IMG/VR virus record: IMGVR_UViG_2617270946_000019 | From: a virus | Lineage: Duplodnaviria; Heunggongvirae; Uroviricota; Caudoviricetes | Length of the DNA: 8,400 bases | Reading direction: 5' to 3' (one strand) | Shown here: positions 1-4,227 of the stretch, one piece after another | How the letters are laid out: each line of letters begins with the position of its first letter | How positions within the stretch are numbered: position 1 is the first letter of the stretch | The notes under the pieces: generated by a model | Told to the model about the DNA's origin: nothing | What the model saw: the letters and a program-made list of their open reading frames with translations, nothing else | The model's database searches: none | Translations under genes and position numbers: made by a program

Positions 1-1230
1 CGTGAAATATACCGCCTGGAGCCTGAAGAAAGCTGTTGCCCGGAGTGTGGCGGTGAGCTGGATTATCTGGGGGAAGTCAGCGCAGAACAACTGGAACTGG
101 TGAGCAGCGCCCTGAAAGTGATCCGCACAGAACGGGTAAAAAAAGCCTGTACAAAATGTGACTGCATCGTTGAAGCACCGGCGCCGTCCCGCCCGATAGA
201 GCGTGGTATCGCGGGCCCCGGATTACTTGCCCGCGTGTTAACGGGAAAATACTGCGAACACCTGCCACTGTATCGTCAGAGTGAAATCTTTGCCCGACAG
301 GGTGTCGAACTGAGCCGTGCATTACTCTCCAACTGGGTTGACGCGTGCTGCCAGTTAATGACGCCGCTGAATGATGCCCTGTACCGTTATGTGATGAATA
401 CCCGCAAGCTTCACACTGACGACACACCGGTAAAGGTACTGGCACCGGGCCTGAAAAAGACGAAAACAGGGCGCATCTGGACGTATGTCCGGGATGATCG
501 CAATGCGGGTTCGTCATCTCCTCCGGCGGTCTGGTTCGCGTACTCATCGAACCGGCAGGGGAAACACCCGGAGCAACACCTCCGCCCCTTCCGGGGTATC
601 CTGCAGGCGGATGCGTTCACAGGTTATGACAGGCTGTTCAGTGCAGAACGTGAAGGTAGTGCGCTGACAGAAGTTGCGTGCTGGGCTCATGCCCGGAGAA
701 AAATCCACGATGTATACATCAGCAGCAAAAGTGCGACGGCAGAAGAAGCCCTGAAGCGAATCAGTGAACTGTACGCCATCGAGGATGAAATACGGGGATT
801 ACCAGAGTCAGAGCGTCTTGCAGCCAGGCAGCAGCGAAGCAAAGCGTTACTGACGTCGCTGCATGAATGGATGGTGGAGAAGAATGGCACGCTGTCGAAA
901 AAATCCAGACTGGGCGAAGCGTTCAGCTATGTACTGAATCAGTGGGACGCCCTCTGTTATTACAGTGATGACGGTCTGGCGGAGGTGGACAATAACACAG
1001 CGGAAAGAGCGCTTCGTGCAGTCTGTCTCGGAAAGAAAAATTACGTGTTCTTCGGTAGCGATCACGGCGGCGAGCGTGGAGCACTGCTGTACGGGCTGAT
1101 CGGCACCTGCCGTCTGAACGGTATCGATCCGGAAGCGTATCTGCGCCATATTCTGAGCGTACTGCCGGAATGGCCCTCCAACCGTGTTGACGAACTCCTG
1201 CCATGGAACGTAGTACTCACCAATAAATAA
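1..1230 (+). CDS. tnpC: IS66-family transposase (TnpC-type), 3' portion; 5' end lies upstream of the window
   Basis: The frame is open from base 1 (REIYRLEPEESCCPECGGEL...), so the GTG at 100 is not the true start. Translation shows a CPECGG zinc-finger-like motif and a long transposase body typical of IS66/ISEc8-type TnpC; stop TAA at 1228-1230. Assignment is by eye from the translation. Confidence 0.88.
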   Translation, partial: REIYRLEPEESCCPECGGELDYLGEVSAEQLELVSSALKVIRTERVKKACTKCDCIVEAPAPSRPIERGIAGPGLLARVLTGKYCEHLPLYRQSEIFARQGVELSRALLSNWVDACCQLMTPLNDALYRYVMNTRKLHTDDTPVKVLAPGLKKTKTGRIWTYVRDDRNAGSSSPPAVWFAYSSNRQGKHPEQHLRPFRGILQADAFTGYDRLFSAEREGSALTEVACWAHARRKIHDVYISSKSATAEEALKRISELYAIEDEIRGLPESERLAARQQRSKALLTSLHEWMVEKNGTLSKKSRLGEAFSYVLNQWDALCYYSDDGLAEVDNNTAERALRAVCLGKKNYVFFGSDHGGERGALLYGLIGTCRLNGIDPEAYLRHILSVLPEWPSNRVDELLPWNVVLTNK

Positions 1231-1800: not shown

Positions 1801-2202
1801 ATGATGAACGCCCTAGAAGTATCTATGTACAGAATCAGCAAGCTTCTTCAGGAAACTGGATGGAGCCAGGCTGAGCTTGCCCGTAGAATTGGTGTGACAC
1901 AACAAACTGTTCAACAATGGGTCAGCGGTAAGGCTACACCTAAAGCCTCAAGTTTGGATAAACTGGTTGAGGTTACAGGGCATCCATTGCATTGGTTTTT
2001 ATTGCCTCCTGAAGAGGGGGAGCAAATTTTCACCCCTGACACGATGAAAATTGGTCCTCGTCAACGCGAACTGCTCCAGGCTTTTAGTGCGTTTCCAGAG
2101 GAAGACCAAGAAAAAATGCTTCAAGAAATCAAAGACAAGAAAAAATCAATGGAAGAAACCATTGCCCGGTGGTTGGCGGCACAAAAAAGCCGCCGGGCGT
2201 GA
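1801..2202 (+). CDS. CI/DicA/PaaR-like HTH repressor (XRE family)
   Basis: 133 aa; N-terminal HTH (SQAELARRIGVTQQTVQQWVSG) and a C-terminal helical region resembling DicA/PaaR-type repressors. Tandem ATG ATG at 1801/1804 with essentially no Shine-Dalgarno. Divergent from the Cro-like gene. Confidence 0.8.
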   Translation: MMNALEVSMYRISKLLQETGWSQAELARRIGVTQQTVQQWVSGKATPKASSLDKLVEVTGHPLHWFLLPPEEGEQIFTPDTMKIGPRQRELLQAFSAFPEEDQEKMLQEIKDKKKSMEETIARWLAAQKSRRA

Positions 2203-2229: not shown

Positions 2230-2421
2230 ATGAGTACAGCCCTTTCTCCGATAGTTTCAGAATTCGAAACTACCGAACAAGAAAACAGTTACAACGAATG
2301 GTTACGCGCTAAAGTGGCGTCAAGCCTTGCTGACCCTCGTCCCTCAATTCCACATGATGAGGTAATGGCTGAAATGGAGAATCTTATTGCTCAAATTGCT
2401 GTAACTAACAGGAGCGAGTAA
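2230..2421 (+). CDS. PaaA-like antitoxin (partner of ParE-family toxin)
   Basis: 63 aa; RBS GAGGAG upstream; sequence ...SEFETTEQENSYNEWLRAKVASSLADPRPSIPHDEV... resembles PaaA2-type antitoxins as I recall them. Stop TAA overlaps the ATG of the next gene (TAATG). Confidence 0.7.
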   Translation: MSTALSPIVSEFETTEQENSYNEWLRAKVASSLADPRPSIPHDEVMAEMENLIAQIAVTNRSE

Positions 2422-2708
2422 TGTTACCCATTTTGTGGCTACCATCTGCTCGCGATGATTTGCGTCAGATCGTAGCCTATATTGCTAAGGAAAATATTCC
2501 TGCAGCACGCAGACTAAAAATACGGATTGAAACGTCTGTTTTAGCTCTCTCTGAGCATCCATATCTATATCCGCCAAGTGATCGAGTATCCGGTTTGCGG
2601 GAAATTGTGGTTCACCCTAATTATATCGTTTTGTACCGAGTAGCAGCTTCAAGCATTGAAATTGCAAATATTGTGCATGCCCGCCGACAATTTCCCTTCC
2701 CTATCTGA
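2421..2708 (+). CDS. parE: ParE/RelE-superfamily toxin (ParE-type)
   Basis: 95 aa; ParE-like pattern (W..A..DL..I..YIA..N..AA, REIVV..YIVLYRV, I.NIVHARR). Translationally coupled to the upstream antitoxin. Confidence 0.8.
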   Translation: MLPILWLPSARDDLRQIVAYIAKENIPAARRLKIRIETSVLALSEHPYLYPPSDRVSGLREIVVHPNYIVLYRVAASSIEIANIVHARRQFPFPI

Positions 2709-2804: not shown

Positions 2805-2980
2805 ATTTCCACTACCCCACCCCGCCCCACAGAACGCAGGGAAATACTTCGAGTTACCCGGCAGTGGTCAGGGGTTAAGTAGCCAGCCCGAGGCGTAAGA
2901 ACATGACGGCAGGGTTCAACTTTAACTATGCAGCAGGTTTTTGTTCCGCTACCCCGGCGTTAAGGGGAAATGAGGTCAGC

Positions 2981-3133
2981 ATGGATACTATCGATCTTGG
3001 CAACAACGAATCTCTGGTATGTGGTGTGTTCCCCAACCAGGACGGTACGTTCACCGCGATGACGTATACCAGAAGCAAAACGTTTAAAACTGAAGCTGGC
3101 GAGCGTCGCTGGTTAACCAGAAACACTGACTGA
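2981..3133 (+). CDS. YdfA/YdaF-like small prophage protein (DUF1391-type)
   Basis: 50 aa (MDTIDLGNNESLVCGVFPNQDGTFTAMTYT...) with RBS GGGGAAATGAGG before ATG 2981. The upstream ATG at 2903 lacks a convincing RBS. Family assignment from memory of the Qin/Rac small proteins. Confidence 0.6.
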   Translation: MDTIDLGNNESLVCGVFPNQDGTFTAMTYTRSKTFKTEAGERRWLTRNTD

Positions 3134-3519: not shown

Positions 3520-3807
3520 TTTATTCACAGGTGAGGTAGAGTGCGTGCGCCGGACACGGATAAGAATCCGGCACTGACAGTTTACTGAAAAGGATATATC
3601 CCTGAAAAGTCAGGGCATAACGCGAAAGCGCACGGCGAAGTTCGTCTCTCTGTAGGTAGTCGTTAAATTTAATTCGACCGTGCGCTTCCGGTTGTGGCAA
3701 TCCGCGAAATGGCGCGGCGGTAAGTATGGCGGGGTTATTCCTTCCCCGCTGAGGACACCGGGTTGTCAGGTTGACCATACGCTTAAGTGACAACCCCGCT
3801 GCAACGC

Positions 3808-3860
3808 CCTCTGTTATCACTTTTCTGGTGATTCGGCGGAAACGGATATCCGCCCTTTTT
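3808..3860 (+). ncRNA. dicF: DicF-like small RNA with intrinsic terminator
   Basis: Sequence UUUCUGGUGA...GGCGG-loop-CCGCCCUUUUU (3822-3860) matches the 5' start and 3' terminator of E. coli DicF as I recall it, but with a shorter internal segment. Terminator hairpin 3835-3854 plus T-run 3856-3860. Sits directly upstream of a dicB-like gene, as in the dicB operon. The 5' end is uncertain because DicF is produced by processing. Confidence 0.6.
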
Positions 3861-3864
3861 AAAG

Positions 3865-4021
3865 TGAATTTTGTGATGCGGTGAATGCGGCTATGCGCAC
3901 GCGGAACAGTTAAAGCAGTAAGGCGGTATTTTACGGGCGTAACGAGCATCAACTAATCCGGCGTTAATTGTTAACTGGTTAACGTCACCTGGAGGCACCA
4001 GGCACTGCATCACAAAATTCA
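3865..4021. repeat. Long-range inverted repeat (15-bp perfect arms: 3865-3879 and 4007-4021) enclosing 127 bp
   Basis: TGAATTTTGTGATGC at 3865-3879 is exactly the reverse complement of 4007-4021. In RNA the pairing extends to about 21 bp (3863-3883 with 4003-4023) allowing G-U pairs. Lies between the dicF terminator and the dicB RBS. Confidence 0.7.
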
Positions 4022-4038
4022 TTGTTGAGGACGCGATA

Positions 4039-4227
4039 ATGGAAACGTTATTACCAAACGTTAATACGTCTGAAGGTTGTTTTGATATTGGTGTTCTGCT
4101 CAGTAACCGGGAGTTTACTGAAGATGCCATTAATATGAGGAAATATGAGCCTTATCTGCTCAATGATAATTCCATACTTTCCCGAATTGCTCTTCTTGAA
4201 CTTGGTATTTTCGGAGAACGTCAATGA
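4039..4227 (+). CDS. dicB: DicB-like cell-division inhibitor
   Basis: 62 aa; N-terminus METLLPNVNTSEGCFDIGV... closely resembles DicB (MKTLLPNVNTSEGCF...) as I recall it. RBS GAGGA 5-9 nt upstream. Position downstream of the dicF-like RNA. Confidence 0.7.
   Translation: METLLPNVNTSEGCFDIGVLLSNREFTEDAINMRKYEPYLLNDNSILSRIALLELGIFGERQ

Follow-up and report, generated by a model that had tools for sequence, protein, structure and literature searches.

A common short allele at the dicF locus of lambdoid prophages is predicted to lack pairing with ftsZ

DicF is a textbook prophage sRNA that depends on Hfq and inhibits cell division when overexpressed. Its target-pairing regions in Escherichia coli K-12 have been assigned to different parts of the molecule. 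Pairing with ftsZ involves the 3′ region, pairing with xylR was genetically assigned to the 5′ end, and pykA is paired by the same internal position as ftsZ, defined by the variant DicF23 (PMC5069750); manX is paired by the 3′ end (PMC5861419). In addition to the RNA with an RNase E-generated 5′ end, a 72-nt RNase III product of K-12 DicF has been described (PMC5069750). The engineered variants DicF9 and DicF21 are separation-of-function variants, which do not repress ftsZ and are non-toxic (Balasubramanian et al., 2016; PMC5069750). Only dicF sequences with more than 99% identity were compared in that study. EHEC has been described as carrying four dicF copies (PMC7873438; PMC11774850), and an Rfam-based list for strain EDL933 contains four DicF copies of 52–56 nt at 1.26, 1.88, 2.16, and 2.33 Mb (PMC5331693). 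In EHEC, pchA has been reported as a DicF target (Melson and Kendall, 2019, as cited in PMC9438474 and PMC7873438).

The present analysis concerns a DicF-like element in a stretch of 8,400 nt of viral DNA (IMG/VR record IMGVR_UViG_2617270946_000019), which is called the window throughout. The window represents the early-left part of a lambdoid prophage, and its features are compiled in Table 1. The gene order is the same as in the Sakai prophage Sp4 and, from the ydfA-type gene on, also the same as in strain 9000 and Sakai Sp14. The element is situated in the dicB operon between the ydfA/B/C-type genes and dicB, and an alignment to K-12 revealed that positions 3822–3860 represent the orthologous dicF position, 5′ of an intact dicB gene. 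None of the complete E. coli genomes covered at least 80% of the whole 8.4-kb window. At positions 1–1260 the IS66-family transposase fragment is directly adjacent to the cro-like gene; in the prophages used for comparison, replication genes occupy this place, and the prophage in the window appears to be truncated or interrupted at this fragment. An inverted repeat of 41 nt (1724–1764 and 2761–2801, 80% complementary, arms 996 nt apart) flanks the HTH repressor gene and the PaaA2/ParE cassette. Each arm is palindromic, the right arm overlaps a promoter-like TTGACA, and the two arms may serve as operators or delimit a mobile cassette. A repeat finder paired positions 947–983 with 3804–3840 (direct match of 27/37 nt, including the word ACGCCCTCTGTTAT), suggesting a second dicF-like copy. 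This was judged to be a chance match, because it lies inside the IS66-family transposase ORF and has only a 14-nt word in common with the upstream flank of dicF. A coding reading of the element, based on a minus-strand ORF at 3521–3952, was also rejected, because the ORF is absent from the PGAP annotation of identical loci and the 19-nt length difference to K-12 would shift its frame.

Table 1. Features of the window and of the dicF-type element (positions in nt, position 1 being the first nucleotide of the window).
Feature	Position	Strand	Remarks
IS66-family transposase fragment	ORF 100–1230		
YdaS/Cro-like gene	1419–1691	minus	
HTH repressor gene	1801–2202		
PaaA2/ParE toxin-antitoxin pair	2230–2708		
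DUF1391 (ydfA-like) gene	2903–3133	+	upstream gene of the dicB operon
Hypothetical ORF, 128 aa	3133–3519	+	operon gene between the ydfA-like gene and the dicF element
Predicted precursor hairpin AUCACU/GGUGAU	3816–3832 (3816–3821 with 3827–3832)	+	fold of 3700–4045
5′ single-stranded region UUUCUGGUGAUUC	3822–3834	+	nt 1–10 as in K-12 DicF; nt 11–13 differ (UUC vs. CGUUU)
Terminator hairpin GGCGGA-AACGGAUA-UCCGCC	3835–3854	+	6 bp (5 G-C), loop of 8 nt; in place of the long K-12 hairpin with the anti-ftsZ sequence
CUUUUU tail of the intrinsic terminator	3855–3860	+	identical to K-12
5′ arm of the 21-bp long-range stem	3863–3883	+	fold of 3700–4045
3′ arm of the 21-bp long-range stem	4003–4023	+	ends 15 nt 5′ of the dicB start codon
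dicB, intact, 62 aa	4039–4227	+	Pfam DicB, E = 6.4e-37; annotated as dicB in identical loci
DUF1482 (ydfD-like) gene, 823-aa exonuclease, excisionase (xis), integrase (int)			downstream of dicB, in this order

For a detailed comparison, window positions 3700–4045 were aligned to the K-12 Qin dicF region (NC_000913.3, annotated ncRNA 1,649,382–1,649,434). The flanks, including the downstream stem, are nearly identical for about 120 nt on the 5′ side and about 75 nt on the 3′ side of the element. Within the element itself (UUUCUGGUGAUUCGGCGGAAACGGAUAUCCGCCCUUUUU, 3822–3860), RNA nucleotides 1–10, the GGCGG/CCGCC stem base, and the CUUUUU are identical to K-12 DicF. The 5′ end UUUCUGGUGA is thus present with 10 of 10 identical nucleotides in an RNase E site context, which has a single A-to-C change at position −2. 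The differences reside in the interior of the RNA: the 27-nt inner hairpin of K-12 (UAUCAGUUUUACUCCGUGACUGCUCUG) is replaced by 10 nt (AAACGGAUAU), and the spacer CGUUU is replaced by UUC. The variant, with the allele-specific sequence GAUUCGGCGGAAAUGGAUAUCC, is termed the short allele. It has a length of 34 nt compared with 53 nt for K-12 DicF when both are counted to the end of the stem (K-12 to ...CCGCCC, U-run excluded), and of 39 nt compared with 58 nt with the U-run, and hence it is 19 nt shorter. By eye, the 10-nt loop resembles the start of the K-12 loop in inverted orientation (AUAUCCGUUU vs. UAUCAGUUUU) and might be what is left of it. The preliminary description had recognized a DicF-like element that starts like K-12 DicF and ends in the same hairpin and U-run; the alignment and the operon context bore this out, and these parts were found to be identical. 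It had also proposed a shortened variant of about 39 nt as compared to about 53 nt. The shortening proved correct, but the size did not, because the like-for-like difference is 19 nt and not about 14 nt. The objection considered there, that a full-length DicF core might be present after all, was settled by the replacement of the inner hairpin, which leaves no such core.

When the short RNA was folded alone, 13 unpaired nucleotides at the 5′ end were followed by a hairpin of 6 bp with an 8-nt loop (−10.7 kcal/mol). The hairpin (3835–3840 with 3849–3854) and the U-run were also listed by a terminator scan. As predicted from the sequence, the GGCGG...CCGCC stem-loop represents a Rho-independent terminator: it is G+C-rich, directly precedes the U-run, and closes a gene block on the transcribed strand. 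The 346-nt fold of positions 3700–4045 (z = −4.2) contains the precursor hairpin as well as the 21-bp long-range stem. The loop of the precursor hairpin includes the position that, by alignment, matches the RNase E-generated 5′ end of K-12 DicF, and by analogy with the K-12 RNA (PMC5069750) RNase E would be expected to generate the 5′ end of the short allele, too. The long-range stem joins the sequence just 3′ of the terminator to the sequence just 5′ of the dicB ribosome-binding site. It is probably an RNase III site, which in analogy to K-12 would yield a longer form of the RNA, and it may also act as a gate on dicB translation. Two further observations concern the surroundings of the element. 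Upstream of it a GC-rich hairpin is found (3728–3734 with 3744–3750), both arms of which differ in two short-allele haplotypes (2014C-4587, NCCP 13963) with the pairing kept (CUGGGG/CUCCAG), which points to structural conservation in the operon leader. In the region from the terminator to dicB (3857–4000) a match to Rfam STnc100 was weak and below the threshold (14.9 bits against a threshold of 47; E = 0.46); many prophage copies of STnc100 exist in EDL933 (PMC5331693).

Covariance-model searches had been proposed in the preliminary description, which regarded the lack of a DicF match as evidence against its assignment. Taken literally, this was the outcome: no match was obtained in the whole window at the Rfam gathering thresholds, and no DicF match in the 351 nt around the site at E ≤ 10. 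However, when 55 nt were searched alone, DicF was the sole Rfam family (16.6 bits, E = 0.057), with a global alignment in which 17 inner model positions were deleted. The gathering threshold of the DicF model (RF00039) is 48 bits, and the K-12 dicF control reached 76.7 bits. The missing match at normal thresholds is therefore due to the deletion and not to absent homology. Judged from the sequence, the homology of the short allele to dicF rests on its position and its flanks. It is a DicF-locus allele and not a strict member of the Rfam family, because two defining features are absent, i.e., a model score above the gathering threshold and the complementarity to ftsZ that is treated below. In the PGAP annotations of strain 9000, strain 2159, and EDL933 no ncRNA is annotated at the site of the short allele.

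The pairing potential with the known K-12 targets was compared using windowed, accessibility-corrected scans and site-restricted folds; these replaced unconstrained folding of whole RNAs, which gave long, unrealistic hybrids. The accessibility-corrected predictions for K-12 DicF agreed with the published assignment of the pairing regions. All energies are model predictions, and for ftsZ even the K-12 value was modest (−4.9 kcal/mol, nt 25–44), compared with +3.1 kcal/mol for the short allele. The respective values were −12.1 (nt 26–43) and +3.2 kcal/mol for pykA, and −12.5 (nt 35–54) and +1.6 kcal/mol for manX. For xylR, −11.7 kcal/mol (nt 6–15) was predicted for K-12 DicF and −4.2 kcal/mol for the short allele, the latter at another site and requiring the terminator stem to open. 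Site-restricted hybrid energies dropped from a range of −19.4 to −33.4 kcal/mol for K-12 to uniform values of −9.3 to −11.4 kcal/mol for the short allele (ftsZ: −19.4 vs. −9.3 kcal/mol), and the hybrids of the short allele were formed with unrelated parts of the RNA. The internal complement to the ftsZ ribosome-binding site (K-12 nt ~25–44, including CUCCG) is absent from the short allele, which is devoid of the inner stem and loop with complementarity to ftsZ, pykA, and manX. The predicted K-12 duplex with xylR comprises nt 6–15 (GGUGACGUUU) or nt 4–18, and it is predicted to be lost as well, because nt 11–15, the spacer, are altered. All four duplexes validated for K-12 (ftsZ, xylR, pykA, and manX) are thus predicted to be lost.

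These results bear on what had been expected from the sequence at first sight. The expectation that the missing internal region is the one that pairs with ftsZ was confirmed, as it corresponds exactly to the part that pairs with the ribosome-binding site (3′ region according to PMC5069750; nt 25–44 of K-12 DicF in the prediction), and the predicted ftsZ duplex vanishes accordingly in the model. That the 5′ seed is kept holds for nt 1–10, but not for nt 11–15, and a changed 5′ part is incompatible with the predicted xylR duplex. The statement that the K-12 5′ end pairs with the other targets applies to xylR (PMC5069750), but not to pykA and manX, which use the internal or the 3′ region. The anticipated change of the target spectrum is consequently wider than the predicted loss of ftsZ, because xylR, pykA, and manX are affected, too, and only a complement of 8 nt to pchA and pchC survives.

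The short allele was found in 442 of the 5,426 complete E. coli genomes (~8%), using an 81-nt query centred on the hairpin and a coverage of at least 80%, with long alleles matching only the 3′ third of the query. The equivalent K-12 query was covered in 3,974 complete E. coli genomes. The short allele is also present in E. albertii NBRC 107761 and in 38 IMG/VR contigs. It was found in none of 50,697 phage records, in which the matches were restricted to the shared 3′ flank. In the EHEC reference genomes it is located in Sakai Sp14 (2,707,678–2,707,716, plus strand), between ECs_2767 and dicB (ECs_2768), and in EDL933 (2,802,005–2,802,043) within the serU-integrated prophage. Long alleles are present in Sakai Sp4, Sp11, and Sp12. 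As the four catalogued copies are long forms, the short allele represents an extra, uncounted locus. A literature search yielded no description of it; the papers of Melson and Kendall (2019), Faubladier and Bouché (1994), and Murashko and Lin-Chao (2017) lay outside this search.

A set of 43 short-allele loci comprised 23 haplotypes. Across these, 35 consecutive columns from −12 to +23, i.e., through the 5′ arm of the stem, were invariant, including the 5′ region at 3822–3834, and about 9 variable sites were present in the 33 nt just upstream of this block. The haplotypes differed at two positions of the loop (C/U and A/G), at the first base 3′ of the stem (C/A), and at one position in the flank; in the hairpin (3835–3854) only the two loop positions were polymorphic. 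The constancy of the 5′ region could reflect the precursor structure or a recent spread, and not selection on the seed. The short allele is linked to a downstream haplotype of its own, which marks it as an established lineage as opposed to a K-12-type copy with a recent deletion.

Several related sequences put the short allele into context. It looks like a natural counterpart of the engineered variants DicF9 and DicF21. In contrast to the short allele, these carry point substitutions in a full-length RNA and have kept xylR control (PMC5069750), whereas in the short allele the whole module is gone and xylR pairing is predicted to be lost. A third dicF allele (UUUCUGGUGACGUUUGGCGGCAUCUGUUUGCCCAUGAACUGAUGUCCGCCC, loop CAUCUGUUUGCCCAUGAACUGAUGU), called class C, was detected at locus L006 (4612–4661, minus strand) and in L013 and L095; it occurs in E. 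albertii, in IMG/VR, and in about 600 E. coli records. Class C has kept the 18 nt at the 5′ end of K-12 DicF, differs in the loop, lacks CUCCG, and has a full length of ~51 nt. Its Rfam DicF score of 43.5 bits is just below the threshold of 48 bits, which explains why it is unannotated. Class C is predicted to keep xylR pairing, because nt 1–18 are retained, and to lose pairing with ftsZ and pykA. Locus, 5′ end, and stem base are the same as in the short allele, and both have an exchanged loop without CUCCG and do not reach the Rfam gathering threshold, but only class C is full-length with nt 1–18. A more distant relative is a Rac-type hairpin 5′ of kil in Sakai Sp10. It has the GGCGG...CCGCCCUUUUU terminator base and the 3′ flank in common with the short allele and is likewise situated in the early-left operon of a lambdoid prophage, but it differs in having an unrelated 5′ part and loop and in being followed by kil and not by dicB. 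The terminator cassette is common to different prophage types, and its top is variable. The class C loop and the Rac-type hairpin with the same base and 3′ flank thus characterize the hairpin top as an exchangeable module in a fixed cassette. The hairpin in the Rac-like Sp10 (L134 ~13,023, minus strand), upstream of a kil-type gene, has the sequence GGCGGCAUCAGUUUUUUUCUUGAAGUUCGGCUGAUGUCCGCCCUUUUU.

Taken together, the element is most likely a natural allele of the DicF locus that still serves as a terminator and processing cassette in cis and is unable to repress ftsZ. The basis for this is the positional orthology, the exact anatomy, the lost complementarity to the four validated K-12 targets, the wide occurrence, and the constancy of the sequence. 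The upper terminator hairpin, and with it the module antisense to the ftsZ, pykA, and manX sites, has been replaced by the 10-nt loop, and the 5-nt spacer by 3 nt. Situated between the ydfA-like genes and dicB, the element would act in cis as an intrinsic terminator and as a cassette for processing; it has kept the RNase E-site context, the hairpin, its U-run, and the 21-bp stem of the RNase III type further downstream. The RNA set free by termination or processing would have a length of ~34–39 nt, or of ~53 nt after a cut at the downstream stem, and 13 unpaired nucleotides at its 5′ end. Such an RNA would be unable to repress ftsZ in the manner of K-12 DicF, any activity in trans would be confined to the conserved 5′ end, and division inhibition by the operon would then be exerted through DicB alone. 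An RNA of 34–39 nt would be unusually short for an Hfq-dependent regulator. An RNA-seq survey of EDL933 listed no new ncRNA near the short allele, but expression of the long copies was very low in this strain as well (PMC5331693). It is very improbable that the short allele is instead fully equivalent to DicF and still represses ftsZ and blocks division despite the deletion. Locus, 5′ end, and terminator base are indeed the same, but the CUCCG anti-Shine-Dalgarno sequence and its flanks are missing, the best predicted ftsZ interaction is unfavourable (+3.1 kcal/mol), and point mutations in this region of K-12 DicF (DicF9, DicF23) already abolish or weaken ftsZ control (PMC5069750). A chance resemblance, or a deletion caused by sequencing or assembly, might be suspected from the short length of the matching segments; it is refuted by orthologous flanks of more than 300 nt and by the same allele in 442 complete genomes and several haplotype backgrounds.

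The question whether the allele retained any function in trans is addressed by two further readings. According to one of them, it is solely a cis element, i.e., an intrinsic terminator or attenuator that restricts how much transcription runs on into the toxic dicB, in which the DicF-like 5′ bases are kept only as part of a processing structure of the operon mRNA and no trans-acting RNA function is left. The hairpin is cut down to a minimal 6-bp terminator, the four validated K-12 duplexes are all predicted to be lost, the 5′ GGUGAU pairs with the upstream AUCACU in the precursor fold, and the entire cassette from −12 to about +80, and not the seed alone, is conserved equally. However, terminator function alone does not need the exact UUUCUGGUGA, and the retained RNase E-site context lets a stable, terminator-ended fragment be expected as a by-product. 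The complement to pchA and pchC also points in the other direction. This reading has somewhat less than an even chance. A retargeted sRNA is distinctly less likely, and is put forward tentatively: the short RNA would be made, bind Hfq, and address a smaller set of targets (in EHEC pchA and pchC) through the conserved 5′ end UUUCUGGU(GA), activating virulence genes without the toxic activity against ftsZ, manX, and pykA. The 5′ end UUUCUGGU, which is constant across the haplotypes, is perfectly complementary over 8 nt to ACCAGAAA at +98 to +105 of both pchA and pchC, and in shuffled sequences the chance of any such 8-mer match was 1.8%. For this pairing a total energy of −7.4 kcal/mol was predicted with almost no opening cost, and the hybrid energy was more favourable for the short allele (−13.2 kcal/mol) than for K-12 DicF (−10.9 kcal/mol). 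In pchA the site lies inside a predicted structure in which coding positions +110 to +119 pair with bases adjoining the ribosome-binding site, and the CCAGA of the site is itself paired there. The published report on pchA as a DicF target, as far as it is cited in reviews, and the joint presence of pchC and the short allele in Sp14 fit this reading as well. On the other hand, reviews conflict on the DicF site in pchA (5′ UTR or coding sequence), and the 8-nt match may differ from the validated site. Moreover, 8 bp are a minimal seed, and the short allele also occurs in BEC1-S17-ESBL-09, a strain not named as STEC.

An extension of this reading is more doubtful still, namely that the short allele is an unrecognized fifth dicF-type gene of EHEC O157:H7 (Sakai Sp14, EDL933 serU prophage), encoding a minimal Hfq-dependent sRNA of ~34–39 nt that has kept the pchA/pchC-activating 5′ seed and shed the growth-toxic module against ftsZ, pykA, and manX. 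The predicted anatomy would fit that of 3′UTR-derived or intra-operonic Hfq-dependent sRNAs, which RNase E releases from an mRNA, which end in a terminator, and which pair with mRNAs through a single-stranded seed, and the 8-nt match to pchA and pchC exists. If this reading were true, the short allele would persist in mutants in which all four dicF copies are regarded as deleted.

Independent of any activity in trans, the preferred interpretation as a natural DicF-locus allele without ftsZ repression is modest but concrete in what it adds: reference EHEC genomes contain a common natural variant of a well-studied sRNA, of the separation-of-function kind, that is not annotated. Model-based annotation misses two common alleles of the dicF locus, the short allele (442/5,426 genomes) and class C (~600 records). 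As both are predicted to lack ftsZ pairing and are unannotated, dicF copy counts and deletion strains considered complete may be incomplete, and so may be the view that a division inhibitor is encoded at every dicF locus. Within a processing cassette that is otherwise fixed, the terminator hairpin has a loop that behaves like an exchangeable module for target recognition, and the short allele offers a natural test of which DicF functions need the 5′ end alone. Variation at the 5′ end was observed in one long copy, that of Sakai Sp4 (L133 ~5,783, minus strand; AUUCUGGUGACAUUU...GUAACUG), the 5′ end of which, invariant elsewhere, starts with a changed base. This copy is located ~18 kb from pchA in the same prophage.
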